Origin: Candidatus Paceibacter sp.
GTDB taxonomy: Bacteria > Patescibacteriota > Minisyncoccia > UBA9983
Direction: 5' to 3'
DNA: 64,000 bases
NCBI GenBank assembly: GCA_013360865.1
Contig: JABWAS010000003.1
Span: forward strand, 681-64,680
Each line of letters starts with the position of its first letter. Within the stretch, counting starts at the first letter, position 1. This document shows positions 1,774-53,244 of this stretch, in pieces. The notes below the pieces were generated by a model. That model searched no databases, had not been told where the DNA came from, and saw only the letters and a list, made by a program, of their open reading frames with translations. A program made the position numbers and the translations under genes.

Positions 1774-3156
1774 TCAAAACATCAAATCGTTGGCCTCTTT
1801 GCGGGGCGCGCCTTTCTCCATCTCAACTTTCAGCTCCGCTATCCTGTCCTGGATCATGGCCGCCTGATGATAATCATCGCGGCGCGCCGATTCGCGCATT
1901 CTTTCTTCCATCGCCTTTATCATCTCTTCGTACTCTTCCCTGCTCATGAAAAATTTTTCTTTCTCCTCCAGGCGCTGCCTTATCTCCTCGTTCTCGCCGC
2001 GCGAAAGCTCGTCCACCAAACCCGTCCTCTGCCAGGAGAAAGCGGTAAAAACTATGTTTTTATACAATTCCTCCGCCGTTTCTTTTTCTTCTTTTTTGGC
2101 CGCCTTGGAATTTTTTATTATTTCTTTTAAGTCGTGCGCGCCGCGCTCTATCCACTCCAGGCTCCACCACGGCCGGGCGGAAGACCACCAAAACTGGTCG
2201 GAGGCAAGCGTCTGGTCAAGATACTTTCTTATGACGGCGTCGTTTTTGTCCGCCGATTCCAGCGCCAAATTAAGAAGCCGCCATTGCCATTGCTGGATTT
2301 CATTGTCTCTGTTGTTCCAACGGAAGTAGGGCTGGCCGATTTTGAAGTCTCGCGGCACCGCCGCCCAAGTTGAAGGGCGCGGCTCAATCGTTTCTCTTTT
2401 CGTAAAATTGAGCAAAACTTCGCTTATCGTCAGCGGCTTTATTTTCTCTTCTTTCATCAGGTCAAAAAGAAGTCTCTCCAGCCCAGGCCGGTGGTGGCCG
2501 AAAATTTCTCCGTCCATGGCCGTAAGAGCGTAAGTGTTTTCTTCACCCGCCTCGCCTTCCAACGTCCGCAAAATGCCGGGCATTGAGCTTTCCGCCGAGG
2601 CGGACAAAATTTTAAAGCTCAACTTTCTCTGCCGGAAGAAAACGGCGAATCCGTCCAGTCCGTCAATTTCGTAAACAACGTCTTTATTCGCTTTCCGCCC
2701 GTCCGGAAACGCCATCTCGTCTATGATTATCCACTTGTAACCGAGTCTTTTGGCCACCTCCGCCACCTTTTTGGAGTAGGCCATTTCCGGCGGAAAGAAA
2801 CCCCCTTTCTTCCAATTCTTCCCGAAATGTTTATTTAATGTTTCCTCGTTTAAAATTATCTGCCGCTCTATTTCCTTCTCCGGCAGCAAGGGCAAGAAGG
2901 CGTGGTACTTGGCGCTGCCGACAAGCTCCACGTTTCCTTTTTCAACCAGTTCGCGGATTTGCTTTAAAATATCCTGCCGGCCGTTTTTCTCCAGCAGGTC
3001 GCACAAAACGCCGCTGATGTTGAGCGTCAGGCGACACCTCTCTATATCCAAAAGACCGGAAAAAATTCTGGCATACGCCTCGGAGGCTATCCTTTTTATT
3101 ATCTCCGGCTTCTGCACCGCCGGTTGGTATATGTGCAAAAAATTGGCCCAGTTCAT
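1774..3156 (-). CDS. Glycoside hydrolase family 57 enzyme with a C-terminal UVR (UvrB/UvrC-type) motif
   Basis: All four GH57 signature regions are present: HIYQP near the N-terminus, GNVELVGSAKYHAFLPLL, GFFPPEMAY (nucleophile Glu) and MDGEIFGHH (acid/base Asp). The C-terminus …DDYHQAAMIQDRIAELKVEM matches the UVR domain consensus. Confidence 0.7.
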   Translation of the reverse strand: MNWANFLHIYQPAVQKPEIIKRIASEAYARIFSGLLDIERCRLTLNISGVLCDLLEKNGRQDILKQIRELVEKGNVELVGSAKYHAFLPLLPEKEIERQIILNEETLNKHFGKNWKKGGFFPPEMAYSKKVAEVAKRLGYKWIIIDEMAFPDGRKANKDVVYEIDGLDGFAVFFRQRKLSFKILSASAESSMPGILRTLEGEAGEENTYALTAMDGEIFGHHRPGLERLLFDLMKEEKIKPLTISEVLLNFTKRETIEPRPSTWAAVPRDFKIGQPYFRWNNRDNEIQQWQWRLLNLALESADKNDAVIRKYLDQTLASDQFWWSSARPWWSLEWIERGAHDLKEIIKNSKAAKKEEKETAEELYKNIVFTAFSWQRTGLVDELSRGENEEIRQRLEEKEKFFMSREEYEEMIKAMEERMRESARRDDYHQAAMIQDRIAELKVEMEKGAPRKEANDLMF

Positions 3157-3170
3157 TTTTTAGAATCGGA

Positions 3171-4661
3171 TTAATTTTTTTGGCGATGGAAGCTTATCGC
3201 CTTCGCGAACAAACGGGCGTATTCCGCCGCCGACTTGTCCCAGGAAAAATCGGCGGACATGGCGTTCTTCTGGATTTTCTGCCAGATTTTTTGATGTTTA
3301 TGATTTTCAATAGCCCTGACCACCGCCCCGAAAAGGGAATAGCCGTTAAACTTTTCAAAGACGAAACCGGTTCCCTTTTTAGAAACGGGGTCGTAATCGG
3401 ACACGCTGTCGGCCAGACCGCCCGTCTTCCTCGCTATCGGAATGGCGCCGTATCTCATCGCTTCCATCTGGGTCAGGCCGCACGGCTCAAATTTGGAAGG
3501 AATGACGACGGCGTCGGCTCCGGCAAAAACCATCCTCGGCAAAACATTGTCAAAAGAAAGATGGGTGGCGACGTTGGGATAATTTTTTCCCAGCTCGGTG
3601 AAAAACGACAAATATTTTGAGTCGCCCGTTCCCACCACGACGAGCTGGAAATTAAAATTTTCCAAAAGCGGCGGCAAAGCTTCCATCAACAGGTCCACTC
3701 CTTTCTGTTCGGTGAGTCTGGACACCAAACCGAGGAGAAAAACATCATCCGGTTTATCCGGAAGGTTGAACTTGTGGCGCAGCGCGGTTTTGTTCTTGGC
3801 CCGCTCGCCCAGTTTTTTGGGGTTGTATTTGATCTCAACACTCGGGTCGGTTTCCGGATTATATGTTTCGTAATCTATCCCGTTGAGGATGCCGAACAGG
3901 CGAGACCTCCTTTCCTGCAGAAGCCCGTCCAGCAGTTCGCCATATTCCGGCGTGGTTATTTCCTTGGCGTAAGTGGGAGAAACGGTGTTGACCGCGTCGG
4001 CGTAAATTATCCCCCTTCTCATGGAATTTATTTTCAGCAGCCGCGGGTCCGTTATGTCCGGCACGGGCGAATGGCCGTCGTCGTAATCCATCTCGCTGAC
4101 GAAACGATGGTCAAACACACCCTGATAAGAAAGATTGTGAATGGAGAAAACCGTGGCGATATCTTTCAAAAATGGGTTGTCCTTGTATTTTGTTTTAAGG
4201 TAATTGGGAATGAGGCCGGTCTGCCAGTCGCAGGCCACGATAACGTCCGGCCGCCAGTCTTTGTAAAAACGGATGAACTCCAGCGCCCCCCGGCAAAGAA
4301 GCGCCCACCTGGCCGCGTCGTCGGCGTAGCCGTAAATGTTGGCTCTCTGTTCGTAATACTCCTGATTTTCCAGAAAATAAACGGGAACGGCGGCATTTTC
4401 CGAAGCGAAAGCTTTGACGTTGCATATTATCATTTCCGAATCGTTGTTGGGCACTTCCAGCCGCTCAAAAACCATCCGCGTCGGACAATTTGTCCGGTCT
4501 ATTGAACCGTAAAATGGAAGCATTACGCGCGCGTCGTGCCCCAACTTCGCCAGCGCTTTCGTTAAAGAATGGACGGCGCTGCCCAAACCTCCGGCCTTGG
4601 CGAACGGAGCCGCCTCGGAGGCGACGAAAAGAACTTTTAGCTTGCTGTCTTTTTTAAACAT
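3171..4661 (-). CDS. glgA: Glycogen/starch synthase (GT5)
   Basis: The N-terminus KVLFVASEAAPFAKAGGLGSAV is the GlgA ADP-glucose binding motif, and the GT-B C-terminal half follows. Confidence 0.85.
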   Translation of the reverse strand: MFKKDSKLKVLFVASEAAPFAKAGGLGSAVHSLTKALAKLGHDARVMLPFYGSIDRTNCPTRMVFERLEVPNNDSEMIICNVKAFASENAAVPVYFLENQEYYEQRANIYGYADDAARWALLCRGALEFIRFYKDWRPDVIVACDWQTGLIPNYLKTKYKDNPFLKDIATVFSIHNLSYQGVFDHRFVSEMDYDDGHSPVPDITDPRLLKINSMRRGIIYADAVNTVSPTYAKEITTPEYGELLDGLLQERRSRLFGILNGIDYETYNPETDPSVEIKYNPKKLGERAKNKTALRHKFNLPDKPDDVFLLGLVSRLTEQKGVDLLMEALPPLLENFNFQLVVVGTGDSKYLSFFTELGKNYPNVATHLSFDNVLPRMVFAGADAVVIPSKFEPCGLTQMEAMRYGAIPIARKTGGLADSVSDYDPVSKKGTGFVFEKFNGYSLFGAVVRAIENHKHQKIWQKIQKNAMSADFSWDKSAAEYARLFAKAISFHRQKN

Positions 4662-4754: not shown

Positions 4755-6209
4755 ATGACAGCTAAAAACCTAACATCCAGGCCGCCAGTAGTGGTGGTGA
4801 TGGGACATATTGACCACGGGAAATCAACCCTGCTTGATTACATCAGGAACGCCAATGTCACCGCCAAAGAGGCCGGCGGCATAACCCAGCACATCGGCGC
4901 TTATGAGGCTGAAGTTGAGAGCGGCGGAGAAAAAAGAAAAATAACTTTTCTGGACACTCCCGGGCACGAAGCTTTTTCTCAAATGAGAACGCGCGGAGCC
5001 AGAGTGGCCGACGTGGCCGTTTTGGTGGTAGCGGCGGACGACGGCGTCCAGCCGCAGACAATGGAGGCTTACGAAACTATAAAAAAATCCGGCCTGCCTT
5101 TCATCGTCGCCATCAATAAGATAGACAAACCCGGCGCCGAGCCGGAAAGAGTCAAAGCCCAGCTGGCCGAAAAAGAAATATTTTTGGAAGGCTACGGCGG
5201 CAACATCCCCTTCGCCAACATCTCCGCCAAAACCGGCCAGGGCGTGCCGGAACTTCTGGATTTGGTGCTGCTCCAGGCCGAGCTGGGAGATTTAAAAGCC
5301 GACCCCGAAGAGCCGGCCTCCGGCGTGATAATAGAATCAAAACTTGATCCAAAAAGAGGCATTTCTTCCACATTGCTTATAAGAAACGGCGCGATGAGAA
5401 AAGGGCAGTTCATCGTCGCCGGCCAGGTTTCCGCCCCTGTAAGAATTTTTGAGGACTTCAAAGGACGCCCGTTGCAGGAGGCGACTTTTTCCTCTCCCGT
5501 CAGAATCACCGGCTTCAGCGGACTGCCCGCCGTAGGCGACGAATTCAAAACTTTTGCCGGCAAAAAAGAAGCGGAGCAGTTTATGCTCCAGCTTAAAGAA
5601 AAAATAACCAAAAAATCTTTGCCGGAAAAATCCGCCGCGGCTCCGGAAATCAAAGACAAGGCGTATGTCCGGATGATAATCAAGACGGACACCGCCGGAT
5701 CACTGGAGGCGCTGGAGAAAGAACTGTTCAAACTCAAAGACGACGAGGTTGTCTTAACTATGCTCAAGGGCGGCGTTGGCAACATAAACGAAGATGACGC
5801 CAAATTCGCCTCAGCTTCCTCCGGCTCCGTGATTTTCGGTTTCAACACGGGAGTTGACGCCGCCGCCAAAGAAATAATCGAGCGTTACAAAACGCCGTTT
5901 TTCGTTTCGGACATAATTTACAAAATAAGCGACTGGCTCAAGGAGGAAATCGCCAGAAGAAAAGCGGAAATTCCAAGGGAGGAAATCATCGGCACGGCCA
6001 AAATACTAAAAACTTTCAGCCGTCAGAAAAACAAACAGGTCATCGGCGGAAAAGTTGTTTCCGGCAAAATGGTTGAGGGCAAAACCTTCAAAATCAAAAG
6101 GCGCGACGCCGAGATTGGCGAAGGACGAATTCGGCGCCATGACGGAAAACAAAATAGAAATCGTCCGCGACGACGAGATAGTGATTATAGGGAAATAAAA
6201 AGAGGCTGA
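4755..6209 (+). CDS. infB: Translation initiation factor IF-2, compact form lacking N-terminal domains; possible frameshift near the 3' end
   Basis: G1 GHIDHGKSTLLD, DTPGHEAF, NKID G4 motif, and the IF-2 domain II/C-terminal pattern. The last ~25 aa (RRHDGKQNRNRPRRRDSDYREIKRG) look out of frame; the +2 frame gives …EFGAMTENKIEIVRDDEIVIIGK, which is closer to the IF-2 C-terminus. Confidence 0.75.
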   Translation: MTAKNLTSRPPVVVVMGHIDHGKSTLLDYIRNANVTAKEAGGITQHIGAYEAEVESGGEKRKITFLDTPGHEAFSQMRTRGARVADVAVLVVAADDGVQPQTMEAYETIKKSGLPFIVAINKIDKPGAEPERVKAQLAEKEIFLEGYGGNIPFANISAKTGQGVPELLDLVLLQAELGDLKADPEEPASGVIIESKLDPKRGISSTLLIRNGAMRKGQFIVAGQVSAPVRIFEDFKGRPLQEATFSSPVRITGFSGLPAVGDEFKTFAGKKEAEQFMLQLKEKITKKSLPEKSAAAPEIKDKAYVRMIIKTDTAGSLEALEKELFKLKDDEVVLTMLKGGVGNINEDDAKFASASSGSVIFGFNTGVDAAAKEIIERYKTPFFVSDIIYKISDWLKEEIARRKAEIPREEIIGTAKILKTFSRQKNKQVIGGKVVSGKMVEGKTFKIKRRDAEIGEGRIRRHDGKQNRNRPRRRDSDYREIKRG

Positions 6210-8551: not shown

Positions 8552-8624
8552 TCGGGGTGGCAGGACTTGAACCTGCGACCTCCGCATTGTGGGCGGCGCG
8601 CTTCCTAAGCTGCGCTACACCCCG
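8552..8624 (-). tRNA. tRNA, 73 nt, isotype unresolved (non-canonical anticodon arm)
   Basis: Canonical acceptor stem (CGGGGTG/CACCCCG plus A73), D-arm GCGC-AGCTTAGGAA-GCGC, and T-arm GCAGG-TTCAAGT-CCTGC. The only reasonable anticodon hairpin is CCGC-CCACAAT-GCGG, which has no U33 and reads ACA, or CAC if the loop is shifted. Confidence 0.55.
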
Positions 8625-8629
8625 GAGAA

Positions 8630-8815
8630 CTAAGCTCTAGTGTCCAGATCAGGGTTAATGTCATCAACCATAATCCAGTGTCCGGCATAACCTTTCCTGT
8701 ACCCTTTTTTAACCATCATTTTGTCTAAATCATCTTGGGTGCAGTTCCAGGTCGGACAAATCAGCGATGCAAAAATATTAACAAAAAAGCTTAAAATTTT
8801 TTCAATAAACTTCAT
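8630..8815 (-). CDS. Small hypothetical protein (61 aa) with hydrophobic N-terminus and CPTWNC motif
   Basis: Strong SD AAGGAGA 7 nt upstream of the ATG, and a TTGACT-N16-TACTAT promoter-like sequence upstream. It lies between tRNA genes. Confidence 0.35.
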   Translation of the reverse strand: MKFIEKILSFFVNIFASLICPTWNCTQDDLDKMMVKKGYRKGYAGHWIMVDDINPDLDTRA

Positions 8816-8909
8816 TTTATTCTCCTTATAAAAGTTTAGGAAAAATAAATGTCAAAAAACGATACGTTACATATAGTATCATTTTTGGTTAAAAAGTCAA
8901 ATTGGCTAC

Positions 8910-9007
8910 GCGGGTAAGGAGAATCGATCACAAATAATTTGCTTCGCAAATTTTCGCGACCCCACCTCGTTCCGCAAAGCGGAACTCCGGCCTTCGATTC
9001 TCTTACC
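8910..9007. repeat. tRNA-Gly 3'-end-derived inverted repeats (GCGGGTAAGGAGAATCGA … TCGATTCTCTTACC) enclosing ~65 nt of small hairpins, downstream of tRNA-Gly
   Basis: 8910-8927 repeats the first 18 nt of the tRNA-Gly gene's plus-strand footprint (9059-9076). 8994-9007 is its near reverse complement. Confidence 0.6.
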
Positions 9008-9057
9008 TGGCTATAAAAATATATTCGCAAACGCTTCGCGTTTTCTCATTATTTTTA

Positions 9058-9128
9058 TGCGGGTAAGGAGAATCGAACTCCTGTCTCATCCTTGGCAAGG
9101 ACGTGTTCTACCACTAAACCATACCCGC
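9058..9128 (-). tRNA. tRNA-Gly (GCC)
   Basis: GCGGGTA acceptor, anticodon stem-loop CGTCC-TTGCCAA-GGATG, T-loop TTCGATT, A73; CCA not encoded. Confidence 0.85.
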
Positions 9129-9211
9129 CTTCGCTACGCTTCGGCGGGCAGGCCCGCTTTGGCGCAGTTGCAATAAAATAAATTATATACGAATACTACA
9201 AAAAATAAAGG

Positions 9212-9294
9212 TGCTGGGGAGAGGACTTGAACCTCCACGGGGTTTCCCCCACCAGCTTCTAAGGCTGGCGTGTCTGCCATTCCACCACCCCAGC
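9212..9294 (-). tRNA. tRNA-Leu (TAG), type II with long variable arm
   Basis: Acceptor GCTGGGG, anticodon stem-loop CCAGC-CTTAGAA-GCTGG, variable arm TGGGGGAAACCCCGT, T-loop TTCAAGT. Confidence 0.85.
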
Positions 9295-9306
9295 AAATAA
9301 ATATTA

Positions 9307-9379
9307 TGCCCTGTGAGGGATTCGAACCCCCGACCATCTCCTTAAGAGGGAGTTGCTCTACCAACTGAGCTAACAGGGC
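9307..9379 (-). tRNA. tRNA-Lys (CTT)
   Basis: Acceptor GCCCTGT, D-arm GCTCAGTTGGTAGAGC, anticodon loop CTCTTAA, T-loop TTCGAAT. Confidence 0.8.
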
Positions 9380-9427
9380 AAAATCCGCTATTAGAATAGC
9401 GGATTTTGGTTTTTAATCAAGTAAAAT

Positions 9428-10387
9428 TTATTGCAGCTTCGCCGCTTTCCTCGGCGGGAACCTGTCCAGATCTATGGTGCGGGGAAAACAAGATCTGCCT
9501 TCCTCGTGAATCCAGTTTTGGTTTATACCCAGGCCATCAACGGCAATAGGTATTCTCTTTGGTCCGTTAATATTCTCGTCTTTGTTGGAAGTTTTAAATT
9601 CGGCGCAAAGTTCAAATGACAAATTGCCCGTCGTTCGGTACTCATAGGGCAGACCGGTTTCCGGATCATTGGGCGGGATAAAGCCAGTGATGTCGTTTTT
9701 CAACTCGTCCAGATTTTGGGGCAATCTTCCTTTCGTCTGCCAGTAATCAACAACCTGCCATTGGATATTGGAGAGGTCGTCTACCCTCCTTTGGTCAAAC
9801 TGCCTTAATCTCTCCGATTGGGGCAAGCCCACGGTGTAAAAACCGAAGATGACGGCGATGCCACCCAACGCGACCATTGTCCTGATAAGCGCCTTCATTT
9901 TGGGATTGGACGAAGGCGCGGTCTCTTTTCTCAAAATCCAGCCGTAATAAAAGAAGGCGGCGATGGCGATAACCAACACAGTCATAATTTTCAGAAGGAA
10001 GGGCATTGTCAGACTGCCGTTTAAAAATTGATAAACTACCGTGACGAAGTCGCCGGCCATGGTTATTATCGCCACAAAAAGAGTGAAGTACAGCAGCCAC
10101 TTTCTGATTTTAAGAGTCTTTTTTTCCGGATTAGCGGCAAGGTCTTTCTGGATAAATGACGATATCCATACGTAGAAAGGGAAAGCGATGGCCAGAACCG
10201 AAAGCGGCCACCTTAAGTTAGCCCTTATCCCTCCGGCGGTAATATGTCTCAACGGGTCGGGAAAATAAAAATCAACAAAGTTGAATACGACTATGCTGAA
10301 GAATACGACGCAGACGTAAAACGATATGATAGCCAAAAGGTTCAAGAACACGTCCTTCGGCCCTGTTTTTTTGATTTCTTCGTTCAT
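9428..10387 (-). CDS. Hypothetical polytopic membrane protein with a GspG/pseudopilin-like C-terminal periplasmic domain
   Basis: The likely true start is MNEEIKK at 10385-10387, because the longer ORF would overlap tRNA-Leu. Several TM helices, then …LPQNLDEL…DPETGLPYEYRT…. Confidence 0.55.
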   Translation of the reverse strand: MNEEIKKTGPKDVFLNLLAIISFYVCVVFFSIVVFNFVDFYFPDPLRHITAGGIRANLRWPLSVLAIAFPFYVWISSFIQKDLAANPEKKTLKIRKWLLYFTLFVAIITMAGDFVTVVYQFLNGSLTMPFLLKIMTVLVIAIAAFFYYGWILRKETAPSSNPKMKALIRTMVALGGIAVIFGFYTVGLPQSERLRQFDQRRVDDLSNIQWQVVDYWQTKGRLPQNLDELKNDITGFIPPNDPETGLPYEYRTTGNLSFELCAEFKTSNKDENINGPKRIPIAVDGLGINQNWIHEEGRSCFPRTIDLDRFPPRKAAKLQ

Positions 10388-10430
10388 AAAAATGATTATA
10401 GCATAATTTATAAAGTTCGTTCCGAACAAT

Positions 10431-10511
10431 TGCCGGTGGTGGGACTCGAACCCACATCCCTTTCGGGACACGATTTTAAGTCGTGCGTGTATACCATTCC
10501 ACCACACCGGC
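10431..10511 (-). tRNA. tRNA-Leu (TAA), type II
   Basis: Acceptor GCCGGTG, anticodon stem-loop CACGA-CTTAAAA-TCGTG, long variable arm, T-loop TTCGAGT. Confidence 0.85.
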
Positions 10512-10517
10512 ATCCAA

Positions 10518-10589
10518 AGGCGCGGGCGGGAATCGAACCCGCGTATGGCGGTTTTGCAGACCGCAGCGTTACCACTTCGCCACCGCGCC
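10518..10589 (-). tRNA. tRNA-Cys (GCA)
   Basis: Acceptor GGCGCGG, anticodon stem-loop GCGGT-CTGCAAA-ACCGC, T-loop TTCGATT, discriminator U73 (Cys identity). Confidence 0.85.
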
Positions 10590-10950: not shown

Positions 10951-12501
10951 TTATTTCAAGGCCAAGCTCTCCCCCCTCATTTCCGCCGGTTTTTCAATCC
11001 CCATTATCTCCAGAATTGTCGGGGCGATATCAGCCAGTTTACCCGTCCGCGAGGAGGGTTTACCCGCCGACACGGAGGGCTTGTCCGAGTTTTTAAGCTT
11101 TATATTTTTGGCGGCAATTATAAGCGGCACACGGCTTTCCGTGTGGGCCGTGTGCGGACTGCCGGTTTTATCGTCAAACATTTTTTCGGCGTTGCCGTGG
11201 TCGGCCGTCACAATCAAAACATATCCGAATTTTTTCACCGCTTCAAAAATCCGGCCGATGCTTCCATCCACTGCTTCAACCGCCCTGACAGTTGCTTCAA
11301 CCTTTCCGGAATGGCCCACCATGTCCAGATTGGCAAAGTTGGCCAGAATAAAATCATATTTGCCGCCGGCGGACTTTTCTACCACGGCGTCGGCGATTTC
11401 TTCGGCTTTCATCTCCGGCGCCAGGTCATGAGTGGCGACTTTGTTGGATGGGATAAGCAGACGGTCTTCGCCCGCGTACGGATATTCCCTGCCTCCGTTG
11501 AAAAAGTAAGTGGCATGGGCGAATTTTTCCGTCTCCGCAACATGAAACTGCTTCAGGTTGTTTTTGGATAAAACTTCCGCCAGATTTTCTTCAATCACTC
11601 CGCCGGAAAAAAGCGCCGTTTTAGCCATAGACGAATCATATTCGGTCATTGTCAGATAAGTGAAATCTTCGGCGTGGCATTCCTCGTTGAATTTTTGGGC
11701 CAGCTGTCTGGCCCGGTCGGAGCGGAAGTTGAAGAATATCATCACGTCATGGTCCATGATTTCGCAAGTTCTGCCAGCTGGCGTCGGGAAAACACACGGC
11801 TTGATAAATTCATCGGTTACGCCGGACTCATAATTCTTTCTTATGGCTTCCGCCGGGGAATCGTACTTTTCTCCTTCCCCTTTAGTTATGGCGTTAAAAG
11901 CGCATTGCGTCCTGTCCCAATTATTATCTCTGTCCATAGCGTAATAACGGCCGGAGAGCGAGGCCACGCAGGCCATGCCTGATTCTTTGCAAACTGACTC
12001 CAACTCGGCCACATATTTTTCGGCACTTTGCGGCGGAGTGTCCCGCCCGTCGGTAAAAGCGTGGATAAAAACTCTCGGCACTCCCGACTTTTTGGCCAAA
12101 TCAATCAAGGCGTAGAGATGTCTGATATGGGAATGCACCCCGCCCGGCGAAACAAGTCCCTTTATGTGAACAGTGGAATTAAATTTTTTCGCTTTCTCAA
12201 AAGCCGCGGCAAGAAGAGGATTTTTCTCCAGTATTTTTTCTTCAACCGCCTTGTTTATTTTTTCTAAGTCCTGATACACCACTCTGCCGGCTCCGATGTT
12301 CATGTGCCCCACTTCGCTGTTGCCCATCTGCCCTTCTGGCAAACCGACAGCCTTGCCCGACGCTTCCAGCTCGCAATGAGGAAAGTTGTTCCAAAGGTAA
12401 TTAAAGTTCGGCGTCTTGGCTTGGGCGATGGCGTTGTATTTTTTGTCATCCGACAATCCCCACCCGTCCAGAATCAAAAGAATTACTTTTTTGTGATTCA
12501 T
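10951..12501 (-). CDS. gpmI: 2,3-bisphosphoglycerate-independent phosphoglycerate mutase
   Basis: MNHKKVILLILDGWG, …NSEVGHMNIGAGR…, and the C-terminal metal-binding TADHGN. The start is placed at the internal Met that matches iPGM N-termini. Confidence 0.85.
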   Translation of the reverse strand: MNHKKVILLILDGWGLSDDKKYNAIAQAKTPNFNYLWNNFPHCELEASGKAVGLPEGQMGNSEVGHMNIGAGRVVYQDLEKINKAVEEKILEKNPLLAAAFEKAKKFNSTVHIKGLVSPGGVHSHIRHLYALIDLAKKSGVPRVFIHAFTDGRDTPPQSAEKYVAELESVCKESGMACVASLSGRYYAMDRDNNWDRTQCAFNAITKGEGEKYDSPAEAIRKNYESGVTDEFIKPCVFPTPAGRTCEIMDHDVMIFFNFRSDRARQLAQKFNEECHAEDFTYLTMTEYDSSMAKTALFSGGVIEENLAEVLSKNNLKQFHVAETEKFAHATYFFNGGREYPYAGEDRLLIPSNKVATHDLAPEMKAEEIADAVVEKSAGGKYDFILANFANLDMVGHSGKVEATVRAVEAVDGSIGRIFEAVKKFGYVLIVTADHGNAEKMFDDKTGSPHTAHTESRVPLIIAAKNIKLKNSDKPSVSAGKPSSRTGKLADIAPTILEIMGIEKPAEMRGESLALK

Positions 12502-12539
12502 TGGTTTAATTTTACTCAAAGTTAACAAAAGAAACTAGC

Positions 12540-12622
12540 ATCGTTTGCGACGCCTTTCGCAGCGCGACGGCGCGAGAAGAGCAAATTTTCAGCAGAAAAT
12601 TATGCGAGCCGAGCAAATGATG
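12540..12622. repeat. 83-bp element with 9-bp terminal inverted repeats, copy 1 (identical to 42515-42597), inserted in the centre of the eno terminator palindrome
   Basis: Exact 83/83 identity with copy 2. The ends ATCGTTTGC…GCAAATGAT are inverted. The flanks gaaactagc/gctagtttc form a split palindrome. Confidence 0.85.
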
Positions 12623-14044
<1,422 letters not shown>

Positions 14045-16790: not shown

Positions 16791-16797
16791 AATACGG

Positions 16798-16844
16798 CAT
16801 CAAGGTTCCTACTTGATAGTTGCTATAAAGGAGGAACCTTGATG
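16798..16844. promoter_or_regulatory. Palindromic element CATCAAGGTTCCT…AGGAACCTTGATG, 10 nt upstream of the paralog-5 start
   Basis: 13-bp perfect inverted arms, related to the element at 17531-17577. Confidence 0.5.
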
Positions 16845-16866
16845 CAACCAGACATTCAGCCCAATC

Positions 16867-17510: not shown

Positions 17511-17530
17511 TTTTCTAATAATAATTCTGA

Positions 17531-17577
17531 CATCAAGGTTTCTCCTTGATAGCTGCTATCAAGGAGAAACCTTGATG
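17531..17577. promoter_or_regulatory. 47-bp perfect palindrome CATCAAGGTTTCTCCTTGATAGC t GCTATCAAGGAGAAACCTTGATG upstream of paralog 3
   Basis: 23-bp arms with a nested inner palindrome CCTTGATAGCTGCTATCAAGG. Confidence 0.55.
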
Positions 17578-17617
17578 TTCTATAATAATAAACCATTATT
17601 TCAAAAACAGCTACAGT

Positions 17618-27894: not shown

Positions 27895-28440
27895 ATGGCG
27901 CTGATACAAAATATTGACCTCTGGGCGGCCGGTTACGCCGAATCAATACGGAGCGTTTTTTTGACTTCGTTTTTCAAGACTGTCACTTACTTAGGCGAGT
28001 GGTCTATTGTTCTGGCGGTAGCCATAATCGTCGCTTTAGTTTTGATTACCAAAGGGAAAAAGGTTTATGCCCTCACTCTGGCCTTGATAACATTTTTAAG
28101 TATCGGCTCCGTCTTTATTTTAAAATACGCTATTCAACGCCCACGGCCAATTGACGGCATTATTGACGAAACTTCATTTTCTTTCCCCAGTCTTCATGCC
28201 GTTCTTTCCGTAGCTTTTTATGGTCTGATAATTTATTTTTTGTGGGAAAGATTTAAAAGCCCGCGGTTCCGCTTTTTTAAAATATTATTCGGCCTTGTTT
28301 TGGTGTTGTTTATCGGCTTCAGCCGCGTTTATCTTGGCGTGCATTATTTGAGCGACGTGCTGGGCGGTTATCTTTTGGGGCTGTTCTGGCTGACGGCCGG
28401 AATTTACGCTTCTTTTAAAAGTGGCAAGGCGAGACCTTGA
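27895..28440 (+). CDS. PAP2-family phosphatase (undecaprenyl-diphosphatase-like)
   Basis: KYAIQRPRP, SFPSLHAV, SRVYLGVHYLSDV; the start is moved to the first ATG after the terminator. Confidence 0.7.
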   Translation: MALIQNIDLWAAGYAESIRSVFLTSFFKTVTYLGEWSIVLAVAIIVALVLITKGKKVYALTLALITFLSIGSVFILKYAIQRPRPIDGIIDETSFSFPSLHAVLSVAFYGLIIYFLWERFKSPRFRFFKILFGLVLVLFIGFSRVYLGVHYLSDVLGGYLLGLFWLTAGIYASFKSGKARP

Positions 28441-28471
28441 CATAAGTCATGTCAAGGTCTCGCCTTGCCAC
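28421..28471. repeat. 51-bp palindrome GTGGCAAGGCGAGACCTTGACAT aagtc ATGTCAAGGTCTCGCCTTGCCAC overlapping the PAP2 stop
   Basis: 23-bp perfect arms; it shares the GCGAGAC/GTCTCGC core with 44161-44204 and 51961-52007. Confidence 0.8.
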
Positions 28472-28492
28472 TTGCCAAAACCATAATCAACC

Positions 28493-30668: not shown

Positions 30669-30718
30669 AAAATCAAGGTTAAACCTTGAGATGCTTTTTA
30701 AGGTTTAACCTTGATTTT
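30669..30718 (+). terminator. Inverted repeat AAAATCAAGGTTAAACCT…AGGTTTAACCTTGATTTT plus T-run downstream of recG
   Basis: 18-bp arms, an A-run before and a T6 run after, so it may act in both directions. Confidence 0.55.
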
Positions 30719-31197: not shown

Positions 31198-31273
31198 TGG
31201 TGCGCGCACTAGGACTCGAACCTAGGACCACCAAGGTATAAGCTTGGCGCTCTACCAACTGAGCTATGCGCGC
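31198..31273 (-). tRNA. tRNA-Ile with anticodon TAT (UAU); CCA encoded
   Basis: Acceptor GCGCGCA/TGCGCGC, D-arm GCTCAGTTGGTAGAGC, anticodon stem-loop CCAAG-CTTATAC-CTTGG, T-loop TTCGAGT, A73 plus CCA. Confidence 0.75.
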
Positions 31274-34536: not shown

Positions 34537-34886
34537 GGGGATGATCGGCCTGGACAAAGAGTACGTTTAAATCACGCAAGCCGAGTGTTCTAAAAACTCG
34601 TAAAACTTTCAGAAATCTAATTAAGCGTCAAAAACTTATTTAGCCAACCGGCGTTAGCTTACGCTTAACCCGGCGTTCCCCCGGCCCACTTCCGATAAGC
34701 CGGACGGAATGTCATTTATCGGGATAGGAAAATTTCCGCCTCAAAAATTTTCCGAAAAATTAGAGGCTCTGGATTCGGAGATTTTGATTGTTTAATACCC
34801 CGTTTCCGAAACGAACAAACAACCTAAGCTTGTAGAACTGATTTAAAACAGCTTTTTGCACGGCGGTTCGATTCCGCCCATCTCCA
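34537..34886 (+). ncRNA. ssrA: tmRNA (transfer-messenger RNA)
   Basis: The 5' end GGGGATGATCGGCCTGGAC pairs with the 3' CATCTCC-A. The T-arm is GGCGG-TTCGATT-CCGCC. It is ~350 nt and adjacent to smpB. A candidate tag frame ends …QPALAYA followed by TAA. Confidence 0.7.
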
Positions 34887-34996
34887 TAAATAAAATGCTC
34901 CAGCTTGCCTAGGGCCATTTTTATTTATGAGCACGATGAAACGGAATCGAACGGACTGACTAAATGTCAGTCCGCGGAATTTTCCATAAGAAAATT

Positions 34997-41815: not shown

Positions 41816-42493
41816 ATGGCGACTTACAAAACCAAGCTCATCAAAAAAGAGGAAGTGGCGGAGGGAACGATGTCTTTTTATTTTGAAAAGCCGGAGAAGT
41901 TCAAGTTTATCGCCGGGCAGTATCTGGAATTCAGCCATATCAAACCGGCGGAGACGGACAGCGAGGGCAACAACCGCTTTTTCTCCATCGCCAGCGCGCC
42001 GTATGAAAACAATATAATGATAGCCACCCGCATGAGAGACACGGCGTTTAAGCGGGTGCTCAAAAATCTGCCCATTGGTTCGGAAATAATAATAAACGGT
42101 CCGCACGGATTTTTTTACCTCCATAAAGACGCCTCCCGACCGGCCGTTTTCCTCATTGGCGGCATTGGCATCACGCCGGTTTCCAGTATTCTAAAAAACG
42201 CCGTCAAGGAAAGACTGCCCCATAAATTGTTTTTGTTTTACTCCAACAAGCGGCCGGAGGACACGGCTTTTCTTAGAGAATTACAAAATCTGGAAAAAGA
42301 AAATCCAGCCTTTAAACTTGTCGCCACCATGACAGATCTGGAAAAGTCGGCGCAAAAATGGCAGGGAGAAACCGGATTTATAAACGTGGAAATGATAAGA
42401 AAATATGTAGGCGATTTAAATTTGATGAAACTTCTGGAAGAAAACGGGGTTAAGAAAAAAGATATGGTGTCGGAAGAATTTGCGGGATACTAG
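41816..42493 (+). CDS. FNR-like FAD/NAD(P)-binding oxidoreductase
   Basis: RFFSIAS FAD-binding motif and the GGIGITP NAD-binding motif. Confidence 0.65.
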   Translation: MATYKTKLIKKEEVAEGTMSFYFEKPEKFKFIAGQYLEFSHIKPAETDSEGNNRFFSIASAPYENNIMIATRMRDTAFKRVLKNLPIGSEIIINGPHGFFYLHKDASRPAVFLIGGIGITPVSSILKNAVKERLPHKLFLFYSNKRPEDTAFLRELQNLEKENPAFKLVATMTDLEKSAQKWQGETGFINVEMIRKYVGDLNLMKLLEENGVKKKDMVSEEFAGY

Positions 42494-42514
42494 CTCATGT
42501 CGCGGGGAATTAAT

Positions 42515-42597
42515 ATCGTTTGCGACGCCTTTCGCAGCGCGACGGCGCGAGAAGAGCAAATTTTCAGCAGAAAATTATGCGAGCCGAGCAAATGATG
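42515..42597. repeat. 83-bp element with terminal inverted repeats, copy 2 (identical to 12540-12622), inserted in the centre of a terminator palindrome
   Basis: The flanks GTCGCGGGGAATTAA / TTAATTCCTCGCGAC form a split hairpin, followed by T6. Confidence 0.85.
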
Positions 42598-42669
42598 TTA
42601 ATTCCTCGCGACAAGTTTTTTGCGCTTTTGTTCGCTTTTACTTTTATTAAAACTTAGTATAATAAACAT

Positions 42670-42921
42670 ATGTTCGACAAACTAAAACAACTCAATGAAT
42701 TGCGGAAAATGAAGAACGCCATCCAGGCGGAGACGGTCACGGCTGAGAGAAACGGGGTTAAAATAACAATAAACGGCAGCTTCAACGTGGAAGACCTTTC
42801 CGTTTCACCGGAGGCCAAACAAGGCTCCGGACTGGAGAAAGATTTGCGCGCCTGCTTCAACGACGCGGTGGGCAAAATCCAAGCAACATTGGCGCAGAAA
42901 TTTTCCTCAATGATGCAGTAG
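42670..42921 (+). CDS. YbaB/EbfC-family nucleoid-associated protein
   Basis: …QLNELRKMKNAIQAETVTAERNGVKITINGSFNVEDLSV… fits the YbaB fold pattern. Confidence 0.6.
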   Translation: MFDKLKQLNELRKMKNAIQAETVTAERNGVKITINGSFNVEDLSVSPEAKQGSGLEKDLRACFNDAVGKIQATLAQKFSSMMQ

Positions 42922-43061
42922 CGCCAAGCCAATAAGAAAAAAACAAATGTTCTACCTGCTAATATATTCCCTGCTTCAGACGATAGGATTCTTCATTTTA
43001 GTCGTGGCGGCCATCGCCTTGCTGACGATAATATTGCTTTCCGTTTCCCGCCGGTTATATT

Positions 43062-44150
43062 GTGGTGCTTGTCGGGGTTTTCCTCCTGTTCTTCTCCACG
43101 CAAGAAGCGCCCCGCCAGCTTAAATTTCCCCTGATGCTTAAAACTTTCGGCCCGGCCGGCGGCCCCGAGTTGCCGATTAAAAGCGTCTTTACCTTTCTTA
43201 AAAATATAAATAATTTTGAGCGGGTGGATATCGCCCGCGACCCGGCCGACATCCCGCCGCCGATAAACAGAAAAGAACCAACGGAAGTCAAAGTGGAAAT
43301 TGAAACCAAAGAAGTCATCGCAGAAATAGCGCCGGGAGTGTATTTCAATTACTGGACTTTCGGCGGGCAGGTGCCCGGGCCGTTTGTCCGCGTCCGCGAA
43401 GGCGACACCGTGGCTTTGACTTTAAAGAACAACCCCTCCAGCCTTCATCACCACAGCATCGACCTGCACGCCGTCAACGGGCCGGGCGGCGGAGCAACGG
43501 TCACTATGGTCGCCCCGGGCGAATCTAAAACGTTCAGATTCAAAGCGCTGAATCCCGGACTTTACGTTTACCACTGCGCTTACCCCAACGTCGGCACCCA
43601 CATGGCGCACGGAATGTATGGGATGATTTTGGTGGAACCGAAAGAAGGCTTGCCTCCGGTGGACAAGGAATTCTACGTAATGCAGGGCGAGTTTTACAGC
43701 GCCGGACGGCTCGGTAAAAAAGGATTGCAGGTTTTTGACGCCGGAAAGATGGTGGACAACCATCCGGAATACATAGTTTTTAACGGCAAAACGAAATCAA
43801 TCAACGGCAACATCAAAGCCAACGTCGGCGAGAAAATAAGATTTTTTGTCGGCAACGGCGGCGTCAACCTCATCTCCTCTTTTCATTTAATCGGCGAAAT
43901 TTTTGATAAAGTTTATCCGGAAGGAGCCGTCGGTTCAGAACCGTTCGCCAACGTGCAGACTACGGCCGTTCCCGCCGGAGGCGCAACTATTGCCGAGTTC
44001 AAACTTGATTATCCGGGCAAATACATCCTGGTTGACCACGCTTTGGCCAGATTGGACAAAGGCGCCTGGGGCGTGATGGAAGCGTCGGGCGAAGCAAACA
44101 AAGAAATTTTTGACGGGGAAATGGGCAACCTTGAAGAAAGCGGGCATTAA
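43062..44150 (+). CDS. nirK: Copper-containing nitrite reductase; the N-terminus is uncertain (GTG start or frameshift)
   Basis: DPADIPPPI…, the type-2 Cu site HHHSIDLHA, and the type-1 Cu site YVYHCAYPNVGTHMAHGMYGM (Cys, His, Met ligands). Confidence 0.8.
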   Translation: MVLVGVFLLFFSTQEAPRQLKFPLMLKTFGPAGGPELPIKSVFTFLKNINNFERVDIARDPADIPPPINRKEPTEVKVEIETKEVIAEIAPGVYFNYWTFGGQVPGPFVRVREGDTVALTLKNNPSSLHHHSIDLHAVNGPGGGATVTMVAPGESKTFRFKALNPGLYVYHCAYPNVGTHMAHGMYGMILVEPKEGLPPVDKEFYVMQGEFYSAGRLGKKGLQVFDAGKMVDNHPEYIVFNGKTKSINGNIKANVGEKIRFFVGNGGVNLISSFHLIGEIFDKVYPEGAVGSEPFANVQTTAVPAGGATIAEFKLDYPGKYILVDHALARLDKGAWGVMEASGEANKEIFDGEMGNLEESGH

Positions 44151-44160
44151 ACTTGGAAGA

Positions 44161-44204
44161 AACTTGGAAGCGAGACTTCCGATTGGAAGTCTCGCTTCCA
44201 AGTT
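44161..44204. repeat. Palindrome AACTTGGAAGCGAGACTTCC gatt GGAAGTCTCGCTTCCAAGTT immediately after the nirK stop
   Basis: 20-bp arms with the GCGAGAC/GTCTCGC core. Confidence 0.75.
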
Positions 44205-44216
44205 TAAATCTCGTAA

Positions 44217-51558: not shown

Positions 51559-53244
51559 TTATTTAAAATTATTTAACTTTTTAGTAAGAGTATGAAAATC
51601 ATTTAAGCAGCTTTCCAGTTCCTTTTCCGCGCTTTCCGCTTTTTCCGTTTCCAGTTTTCTTATCCGTCGCGTTATCTCTTCCAGTTCGTTTTTTAATTTT
51701 TCTTTGGATAACTCTTTTTCCATTTTCTCCATCTCCTCCTTCAGCGTCTCGGAACCGTCAAAATAAATTTCCGCTTCCGTTATTATTTTATTTATATCAT
51801 TATCTTGCAATTTGTCAACGTAGTCTTTTATCCGTTCCAGAACTTGTCCGGCCGCGCTTTTTATTTCCGGATTTCGCGATTCTTTTTGCCACAGGGCCAG
51901 CCCGGCCAGCCGGTTGGAAAGAAATTCCAGGCGGGTTTTGGGCGCGAAGCTTTTTTGGCGCACTGTCAAGGTCTCGCCTTGACTGTCAAGGCGAGACCTT
52001 GACAGTGGTTCTAGTTTTACTTTCTTCAACTCCTGCCAGACCGGTTCTTCGGATATGCCGAATTTGTCGGCTATTTTTTTGACCACCTGCGCTTTCTCAA
52101 TCTCGCTGGGCAACCCGGCTATCAAAGGCAGGATTTTACCTTCCACCGATTTGCGGTCGCCCGCCGCCTCCAGCAGAAAGTCAAAAATATTCCGGGCGCT
52201 TTCCACCGCCGCCAGCCAGCTTTCCGGGTCTTCCAAAACGGCGTCCGCCGGATCTTTGCCGGAAGGGATGACGGCCGCCCTCACCTCCAAACCTTCCGCC
52301 AAGGCCATGGATATGCTTCTTTGCGCCGCGCTGATTCCGGCCCGGTCGCTGTCAAAAGCCATTATTATTTTGTCGGCCAGTCTTTTTATAAGGTTGAGGT
52401 GAAACGAAGTTAAAGCCGTTCCGGAAACAGCCACCGTGTTTGACACCCCGGCCTGACGCGACATTATCGCGTCCATCTGCCCTTCCACCAAAACGCAGGA
52501 GTTCGTTTTGCGGATTTCCCCTTTGGCTTTGTCAAAAGCGTAAAGAAGGCGGGACTTGTCGTACAAAACCGTCTGCGGCGTGTTGACGTATTTGCCTTCA
52601 TTGCCGGCCTGTTCGCCAAAAATTCTGCCGCTGAAGCCGACAACCTGGCCGGAAGAATTGGCCAGCGGAAACATTATCCGGCTCCGGAAGCGGTCGTAAT
52701 AACCCTTGGACGACTTTATGACCATTCCCGCTTTTTCCATTTCCGCGTCAGCATAGCCTTTTTTCTTCAAAAAATCATAGAGATTCCTCCAGCCTTCCGG
52801 AGCGAAGCCTATGCCGAAAGCTTTGGCCATTTCCCCTTTCACGCCTCGTTTTTTAAGGTAATCTATGACCGCGGAATTTTTCCTCAATTCGTTTTCGTAA
52901 AATATCGCGGCGCTTTGCGTCAGATGGAGCAGTTTCGTCCGTTCGTTTTTCTGCCCAATGTTTATTTTCTCCACCCGCACTCCGGCCCGGTCGGCCAAAA
53001 TTTTCAGCGCTTCCACGAAATCAATCCCTTCCATCTCCATCACGAAACTGAACATATCTCCGCCTTTGGAACAGCCGAAGCAATGCCAGCTTTCCCTGGC
53101 GGGAGAAACGAAAAACGAGGGCGTTTTTTCCGCGTGGAACGGGCAGCAGGCTTTGTAAGACGAGCCCGCTTTAGTGAGTTTGACGTAGCTCTGAACCACG
53201 TCAACTATGCCGAGGCGGGATTTAATTTGCTCAACGGTAGACAT
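51559..53244 (-). CDS. dnaG: DNA primase
   Basis: Zinc ribbon [15 protein letters not shown]…[11 protein letters not shown] and a TOPRIM domain; it contains an in-frame palindromic insert at 51961-52007. Confidence 0.9.
51961..52007. repeat. 47-bp palindrome CACTGTCAAGGTCTCGCCTTGAC t GTCAAGGCGAGACCTTGACAGTG in-frame inside dnaG (encodes [16 protein letters not shown])
   Basis: 23-bp perfect arms; the same core as the palindrome at 28421-28471. Confidence 0.8.

Follow-up and report, generated by a model that had tools for sequence, protein, structure and literature searches.

Patescibacteria/Parcubacteria carry a new family of non-coding palindromic repeats, 100–150 nt in length, each copy of which is one long hairpin. 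Two of its members lie in the window, by which we mean the whole 64,000-nt stretch of the Candidatus Paceibacter sp. contig JABWAS010000003.1 analysed here, and they share a block of 83 bp. We hold with moderate confidence that this is an RPE/MITE-like repeat family (RPE, Rickettsia palindromic element) whose copies arrive as complete hairpins with a structured and conserved core, the 83-bp block being the sequence-constrained centre of each of the two window copies.

In each copy, a closing helix (P1) of 20–35 bp with a small internal loop of tandem G.A pairs is capped by a 58-nt three-way junction, composed of a P2 hairpin of variable length, an invariant P3 hairpin and conserved junction bases. 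The element, which carries no gene, is or was presumably mobilised in trans as a whole hairpin, via a single-stranded intermediate of the + strand. Once inserted, copies have kept the core almost invariant, and P1 has changed by compensatory substitutions.

Two identical copies in the window

The repeated block occupies 12540–12622 (copy 1) and 42515–42597 (copy 2), both on the + strand. An 82-nt probe matched the window twice without a mismatch (12540–12621 and 42515–42596), none of 100 shuffles gave any match, and the base after the probe is G in both copies, which brings the identical block to 83 bp, in agreement with the sequence-only reading of this DNA. The block ends in ATCGTTTGC and GCAAATGAT, a 9-bp inverted repeat with one G.T, and is itself flanked by inverted repeats that differ between the two copies. 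Those of copy 2, GTCGCGGGGAATTAA and TTAATTCCTCGCGAC, are complementary except for G42505 opposite T42606, the G–T difference between the arms that had been noted from the sequence, and a T-run (42616–42621) lies 3′ of the second arm. Copy 1 consists of the arm AGAAACTAG (12530–12538), a C, the block and the arm CTAGTTTCT (12623–12631), the last of which includes the TAG stop codon of the enolase gene on the − strand; this copy, in antisense orientation, separates the eno stop codon from the start of gpmI. Folded as RNA, the 131-nt stretch 42495–42625 around copy 2 reaches −59.4 kcal/mol (z = −6.1) and the stretch 12525–12640 around copy 1 reaches −47.5 kcal/mol (z = −6.4), each as one long hairpin, which supports the earlier description of a hairpin-forming, non-coding repeated element. 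The ORF that has its TTG start in copy 1 and continues antisense to the enolase gene is spurious, as had also been proposed. The features of both copies and their neighbours are collected in Table 1.

Since the source is a metagenome-assembled genome (MAG) and short-read assemblers break at repeats, a collapsed or chimeric repeat has to be considered. More than ten independent sequencing runs, however, gave short-read contigs with the same flank/element junctions of both copies. These contigs break inside the element, as is expected for a true multi-copy repeat, and contigs L017 and L001 jointly span all 83 bp of copy 2 with identical sequence. Related copies are also present in unrelated projects and genomes. 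An assembly artefact is extremely improbable, and the identity of the two copies is unlikely to be the product of a collapse; because the same junctions appear in so many independent assemblies, the 83-bp repeat is genuine, present in several copies and, in this species, fixed at both sites. The window enolase has 100% identity to that of a ‘Candidatus Pacebacteria bacterium’ MAG, and the homologues of the FNR-like protein and of Xer come from Parcubacteria/Patescibacteria.

A promoter-like match (TTAACA, 16 nt, CATAAT; 10/12) was seen at 42574–42601 on the − strand, complementary to copy 2. It was treated as chance, its −10 lying in the conserved core and its −35 on arm bases that differ elsewhere.

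Table 1. Positions of the two element copies, their parts and the adjacent genes and reading frames in the window.
Feature	Positions	Strand	Remarks
Whole hairpin element, copy 2 (outer arm, 83-bp block, outer arm; 114 nt)	42499..42612	+	Covariance model R1, 118 bits
5′ outer arm of P1, GTCGCGGGGAATTAA, copy 2	42499..42513	+	G42505 pairs T42606 as G.U
83-bp block, copy 2 (inner P1, GAC/CGA internal loop, 58-nt core)	42515..42597	+	
Inner P1, copy 2	42515-42523 with 42588-42596	+	
GAC/CGA internal loop with tandem G.A, copy 2	42524-42526 with 42585-42587	+	
Conserved 58-nt three-way-junction core, copy 2	42527..42584	+	RNAalifold and manual structure agree
P2a, copy 2	42530-42533 with 42551-42554	+	
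P2b hairpin, copy 2	42537-42548	+	
P3 hairpin, copy 2	42556-42580	+	
3′ outer arm of P1, TTAATTCCTCGCGAC, copy 2	42598..42612	+	
T-rich tail AAGTTTTTTGCGCTTTTGTTCGCTTTTACTTTTATTAAAACT, copy 2, from hairpin to TAG-TATAATAAACAT-ATG 18-mer	42613..42654	+	T-run 42616-42621
Whole hairpin element, copy 1 (102 nt)	12530..12631	+	Covariance model, 114 bits
FNR-like oxidoreductase gene, upstream of copy 2	41816..42493	+	PF00175 homologues
ybaB, downstream of copy 2	42670..42921	+	PF02575
Enolase gene; last codons (..GRN*) form copy 1 arm	12623..14026	−	Stop codon 12623-12625
gpmI, downstream of copy 1	10951..12528	−	Likely true start ATG at 12501
Spurious ORF, begins at TTG inside copy 1, antisense through eno	12545..13117	+	
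Spurious 56-aa ORF reading through copy 2	42480..42650	+	Frame is that translated in xer-gene copies

Family members and the conserved junction

Outside the window, about nine Parcubacteria/Patescibacteria genomes or metagenomes yielded 13 further full copies; three of the MAGs have two or more each. Scans of sequence collections with two patterns yielded four metagenome loci (L011–L014) and seven loci in four Patescibacteria MAGs (L034–L040); one additional copy lies in L041, and a partial copy was seen at the contig end of L030. The alignments A1/A4 comprise 15 full copies, the two of the window included. What is truly conserved is the 58-nt three-way junction, GCCTT..(P2 hairpin)..GAGnAGAGC-AAATTTTCAGCAGAAAATT-ATGCGAGC, and the core pattern over the 15 aligned copies is GCCTTnCRnAG, the P2 hairpin, GAGnAGAGC, AAATTTTC(AGCA)GAAAATT and ATGCGAGC. 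P2 has a short form, GCGC-GRCG-GCGC, which gives the 83-nt type, and a long form, which gives the 106-nt type; an extra 21-nt hairpin occurs in the L035 copy.

Flanking arms are present in 15/15 copies examined, and the closing helix P1 measures 19–44 bp across copies. The 8 bp adjoining the block follow a family consensus, GAAATAGT, which the inner 8–9 nt of the copy 2 5′ arm match, and an 18-nt arm, CTTTGAATTACGAAATAG, is common to several genomes. What had been read as 9-bp terminal inverted repeats (TIRs) is the inner part of P1. This stretch is identical in the window copies, L011, L013, L012a and L014, and varies with compensation in other genomes (ATCGTCCGC/GCGGATGAT in L035, TGTTATGAGCAGA/TCTGCGAGTAATA in L034, and a quite different sequence in L037).

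In the manual structure, standard pairs are found in 97.1–97.3% of cells, and 18–22 of about 44 pairs are altered on both sides, a level reached by 0 of 500 shuffles, with slid controls at 36–52%. RNAalifold, run independently, returned the same 41 pairs. Within the core, alignment columns 30:95 (42532:42552 in copy 2) hold AU in six copies, GC in five and UA in four, and columns 58:89 hold both G-C and C-G. P3 is invariant across copies, but the second search pattern demanded most of P3, so that its invariance, in part a matter of ascertainment, says little.

The family is small in public data, judging from the element peptide, which gave only six short matches among 1.84 billion representative proteins. 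A covariance model detected no degenerate or additional copies in the window and 204 kb of loci, the viral contigs scanned gave no match, and scanning genome contigs with the 3′ 22-mer returned nothing. The Rfam 15 covariance models gave no match at gathering over the whole window; at E ≤ 10, generic microRNA-hairpin matches were the only ones. A hammerhead ribozyme was rejected after its core motifs had been examined by eye, and a literature search for a MITE or RNA motif of CPR bacteria found nothing relevant.

Two further traces of the family were observed. In L012, a lone arm, TTGAATTACAAAATAGTATC (3007–3026), lies between the priA stop and the def start without core or partner arm; it matches the arms of both full L012 copies together with their first inner-stem bases. 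The annotated N-terminal extension, MSFATPFTARRREKSKFSAENYASRANDII, of a GatC-like protein of 146 aa (P0361) is translated element, which indicates another copy directly upstream of gatC that misleads gene calling.

The arms arrive with the core

Whether the arms belong to the element can be judged from filled and empty sites, all of which are compared here between species 15–35% diverged and not between strains. No strain-level empty site was found, and exact-protein look-ups with YbaB, enolase and the FNR-like protein led only to contigs broken inside the element.

In L035 the element lies in frame inside the gene of an XerC/D-like recombinase. Empty alleles (P0286, P0295) read ..EEALFF|LTPRSVERM.. 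and filled alleles (P0244–P0250) read ..ALFVSDRLMSFATPFTARRREKSKFSAENYASRAKDINLSRLSSCSRLTPRS.. at this point. The DNA of L041 (filled) and L042 (empty) is 85% identical, and the net insert of 129 nt consists of both arms and the core. Insert lengths at this site are multiples of three, the extra 21-nt hairpin of L035 included. The empty xer allele has no palindrome. That the arms might be inverted copies of the flanking target was considered and rejected, since at the xer site they do not match the flanks.

At the site of copy 1, eno and gpmI overlap by 11 nt without a spacer (..AAATATGGATTATAA..) in three relatives, L031–L033, whose enolases are 81–83% identical and end in ..YGL*. In the window and in L030, which is as distant as L031–L033, about 150 nt including the element separate the two genes (window 12440–12720 against L031 4200–4330). 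The L030 element comes straight after an enolase whose gained tail ends in RN*, like that of the window. The window enolase has the new tail ..LGGKILGRN*, its stop codon lying inside the element arm, and the window gpmI has its own start 37 nt past the other arm. As for typA, L038 has the element 12 nt before the start codon; the window typA leader shares a promoter-like stretch and a small hairpin with L038 and has neither element nor palindrome.

At the site of copy 2, the FNR-like gene of the relatives L044–L047 (protein 67–68% identical) ends in a stop codon followed by a 12–13-nt spacer, TATAATAAGCGT, and then by the ATG of a Cu-oxidase gene, with no hairpin and no ybaB. Just before ybaB, the window (42655–42672, TAG-TATAATAAACAT-ATG) matches this FNR-stop/Cu-oxidase-start spacer at 16 of 18 positions (L044 2221–2238). 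Because of this shared 18-mer, 42494–42654 looks like added DNA, which would consist of 5 nt, the 114-nt hairpin and the 42-nt T-rich tail; the tail, too, was probably part of what was added here. Since ybaB is absent at this position in the relatives, ybaB and the element both appear to be additions in this lineage. The 18-mer contains a −10-like box 6 nt before the ybaB ATG, which suggests that transcription of ybaB may be leaderless.

At each site known in both the filled and the empty state, the added DNA includes both arms, and no unoccupied palindrome of the arm type exists within the 64-kb window. None of the four comparisons supports the earlier proposal that an 83-bp unit had split a pre-existing terminator of the FNR-like gene; at xer the arms come with the core and the empty allele has no palindrome, and in the FNR–ybaB region L044–L047 have no hairpin to split.

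The Parcubacteria xer gene (alignment A2; L035 1208–2524) also contains, in certain lineages, in-frame inserts of two further types, the first in the linker (..GGRKSASLRTV..GNSTEASFSS..) and the second adjoining the element site (..GKVGFRRIPRYDRSQGNQF..), which may be further repeat families that enter coding sequence. Downstream in the L035 locus, two fragments (3952–4029 and 5426–5527) resemble the last 26–34 xer codons, with 76–81% identity at the protein level and a stop codon in one of them; they look like what repeated integration or replacement would leave behind at the 3′ end of xer.

Strand asymmetry of the fold

Over 14 copies, P1 read on the + strand contains 354 Watson-Crick pairs, 36 G.U and 4 A.C. 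Standard pairs make up 97.3% on the + strand versus 89.5% on the − strand (mirrored structure, reverse complement), and 95.2% versus 86.3% for P1 alone. Part of the wobble asymmetry is inherited, a few wobble positions being common to many copies; by our own count, the non-inherited wobble pairs stand to A.C at about 14 to 2. G.U pairs have thus gathered almost exclusively on the + strand. G42505/T42606 of copy 2 is a property of the element’s own stem, and the excess of G.U over A.C agrees with the suggestion, made from copy 2 only, of a fold that tolerates G.U (or G.T) on the + strand. Selection would act on the single-stranded form of that strand, be it RNA or ssDNA. The orientation of the copies shows no bias with respect to local GC skew (nine negative, six positive) and is mixed with respect to neighbouring genes, about six copies being sense and about five antisense, with the remainder located where genes converge or diverge.

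Core and stem of inserted copies

L041 and L035 carry orthologous copies at the xer site, and the cores of these agree at 58/58 positions when the extra L035 hairpin is left out; the xer coding sequence flanking them is 70% and 81% identical on the two sides. Their P1 arms have many differences, among them three or more double changes that compensate each other and several intermediates with a wobble pair, and at an orthologous site such changes indicate evolution of the stem rather than different targets. The stem thus evolves in place under selection for pairing, and the core is under nucleotide-level constraint even in a translated copy. These two tendencies together can explain how the window copies have an identical block and yet differing outer arms. 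We infer that the identity of the window copies reflects strong constraint, possibly together with a recent copy or gene-conversion event, and does not mark transposon ends. The sudden drop in identity between them at the block ends, from 100% to about 50%, is only loosely explained in this way.

Distribution and mobility

Element copies are located in 3′ intergenic regions, in 5′ leaders, at the former eno/gpmI overlap and in frame in the xer gene, which is the only in-frame site found; none lies inside a gene in the window. They neighbour housekeeping genes, among them PCMT, fmt, def, priA, mreB, frr and rseP. In the loci examined, which amount to about 200 kb of related sequence, no element copy has a transposase or recombinase gene next to it, and 204 kb of loci contain no longer relative of the element that could be an autonomous insertion sequence. 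The 14 hairpins have no direct repeat in common at their flanks: a doubtful GTTGTT repeat at the xer site fits only if a 1-nt indel is allowed, and the TAG..TAG of the FNR site is just 3 nt long. Target duplication of TA, TTAA or CTAG, as in IS630- or piggyBac-like elements, was rejected, as it would need different terminal bases in otherwise identical copies; so was IS200/IS605-type insertion beside a fixed tetranucleotide, the left flank being variable (TAGC, TAAT, TAGT). We infer the mobility of the element solely from its distribution.

The relative L032, whose eno/gpmI site is empty, has a 234-aa ORF (2554–3258) with a weak match to a Y1 transposase (PF01797). No link of this ORF to the element was seen, and the 21 kb of the locus examined contain no element copy.

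Comparison with known repeats and hairpins

Rickettsia palindromic elements appear to be the closest analogue, combined with a conservation like that of ERIC. RPEs are dispersed in intergenic DNA and in frame in housekeeping protein genes, where they leave the host ORF intact and add a hydrophilic peptide (PMC10969869). Like them, the present elements are short (100–150 bp), palindromic, non-autonomous repeats of a reduced, host-dependent bacterium, have intergenic copies as well as in-frame ones in xer with the host ORF preserved, and occur in several copies per genome (two in the 64-kb window, two each in three other MAGs). The likeness is one of description, an analogy rather than membership, as the host is a Patescibacteria MAG. 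The in-frame sites number one, and few proteins contain the peptide. Furthermore, the centre of the element is a non-palindromic three-way junction, nearly invariant across species and with strand-specific wobble pairs; we know of no such report for RPEs.

ERIC/IRU sequences (and also Correia, RUP and BOX) are similar in being imperfect palindromes of about 100–130 bp, highly conserved across species, found in either orientation and often inside transcription units, and in having longer variants by internal insertion, comparable to the 83-nt and 106-nt forms of P2 and the 21-nt hairpin of L035. On the other hand, no sequence relation is expected, and the present element also lies inside coding sequence. 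Defined TIRs and TA duplications, which mark Correia and typical MITEs, were not found here; the ends of the element are a hairpin stem and vary between genomes. REPINs mobilised by RAYT share the placement of hairpin repeats at gene ends, a single-stranded fold thought to be recognised by the enzyme and the lack of a clear target duplication, but have two conserved REP ends around a variable middle, whereas here the middle is conserved and the ends vary; no RAYT gene linked to the element was found in the loci examined. The R″/R′ boxes of integron attC sites (RYYYAAC..GTTRRRY) are absent from the element ends by inspection of alignment A4.

An intrinsic terminator is the remaining likeness, and it concerns copy 2, which puts a stable hairpin on the mRNA strand followed by the T-run 42616–42621. 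Unlike a terminator, this stem-loop is 114 nt long with a branched top, its T-run starts 3 nt past the stem, other element copies have no T-run and the relatives have no terminator at the FNR position; a scan with the terminator consensus did not call the copy 2 hairpin. The model proposed here is that the + strand of copy 2, being the mRNA strand, would supply the 114-nt hairpin and U-run that now serve as the 3′ end or terminator of the FNR-like gene, having replaced nothing there, and that hairpin and T-run probably end or stabilise the FNR-like transcript.

Weighing the alternatives

Taken by themselves, the two window copies invite the model of the sequence-only reading, an 83-bp MITE with 9-bp TIRs that enters the apex of pre-existing terminator palindromes without target duplication. 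Their identity extends over exactly 83 bp with largely unrelated outer arms, both lie at gene 3′ ends with a T-run after the copy 2 arm, and insertion into palindrome loops has precedents such as IS1397, which targets REP sequences. Nonetheless we regard this model as very improbable. No palindrome exists at the empty xer allele, the eno/gpmI overlap, the window typA leader or the FNR–Cu-oxidase spacer, nor does the window offer an unoccupied one; the arms next to the block follow the family consensus, whole 18-nt arms being common to several genomes; and the supposed TIR covaries in L035, L034 and L037. A further alternative is an ssDNA recombination substrate, in which the folded + strand is recognised by a tyrosine recombinase or an HUH/Y1 transposase that moves the hairpin. 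Tyrosine recombinases use folded substrates in integron attC sites and the CTX phage attP hairpin, and HUH/Y1 transposases do so in REP/RAYT and at IS200/IS605 ends. A strand-specific fold that tolerates G.T, the lack of a clear target duplication, a conserved structure with free stem sequence and the weak Y1_Tnp ORF of L032 are compatible with such a substrate. It is improbable all the same, for no copy is linked to a recombinase or Y1 gene in the loci examined, attC boxes are missing, the copies are scattered among housekeeping genes and not arrayed, orientation is unbiased with respect to GC skew (9 to 6), and the left flank is not the constant tetranucleotide that IS200/IS605 requires.

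The main rival is a host-functional family of structured RNAs, not primarily mobile, whose three-way junction would be protein-binding or catalytic and kept by purifying selection. Core conservation supports it, the core being 58/58 identical where the host gene is 70–81% identical, as do the conserved junction bases, the covariation within the core and the strand-specific wobble pairs. We still judge it unlikely, given that no Rfam family matches even at E ≤ 10, that no promoter is conserved (the one promoter-like match is at chance level and on the opposite strand), that orientation to neighbouring genes is mixed, that one copy is translated in frame inside xer, that locations are not conserved between genomes and that copies are few in public data. 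A family of palindromic repeats arriving as complete hairpins, the reading we favour, has difficulties of its own: the loci examined contain no autonomous partner, transposase or clear target-site duplication; the strong conservation of every copy, old orthologous ones too, is unlike a decaying selfish repeat and may point to host function; and a strand-specific fold acting in cis on the mRNA is not easily reconciled with mixed orientation. Somewhat speculatively, the 58-nt junction may be a functional single-stranded module, either a recognition fold for a trans-acting mobilising enzyme or a small RNA with catalytic or protein-binding activity, and purifying selection would maintain it in all copies, the one translated within a recombinase gene among them.

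Other observations in the window

A second, unrelated family of long, nearly perfect palindromes lies in intergenic positions at 16797–16845, 17530–17578, 28419–28473, 30674–30713, 44160–44205 and 51961–52007. Their arms are small hairpins in their own right (CAAGG-N5-CCTTG or GGAAG-N5-CTTCC), as in AAGTGGCAAGGCGAGACCTTGACAT..ATGTCAAGGTCTCGCCTTGCCACTT, and the arrangement resembles REPIN-like doublets or bidirectional terminators. Near 43057, the Cu-oxidase/nirK-like gene lacks 29 nt (AAAATCGCCAAAAAAATAGTAATACCGGC) relative to the otherwise identical Logan contig L001, which splits it into two frames (ORFs 42947–43123 and 43062–44150); this is either a strain variant, a pseudogene or an assembly error of the MAG. 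The window also contains a tmRNA gene (34537–34889, 130 bits) and seven tRNA genes (8552–10589; 31201–31273), six of them clustered at 8.5–10.6 kb on the − strand.

Implications

The element affects both annotation and gene structure. It breaks short-read assemblies and creates spurious ORFs, two of them in the window, as well as false N-terminal extensions such as that of the GatC homologue P0361. At the sites compared, an overlapping eno/gpmI pair was uncoupled and its enolase given a new C-terminal tail and stop codon, the loop of an Xer recombinase was lengthened, and a 3′ hairpin was added to the FNR-like gene. With a conservation far above that of the surrounding host genes and with strand-specific covariation, the core is a candidate for a new structured nucleic-acid motif. 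Were the junction indeed a functional single-stranded module, the family would be more than a decaying MITE, namely a structured element of a new class that is confined to CPR bacteria and either propagates itself or has been domesticated. In-frame palindromic repeats are best known from Rickettsia, and an analogue in Patescibacteria suggests that they are a recurring way of remodelling compact genomes.
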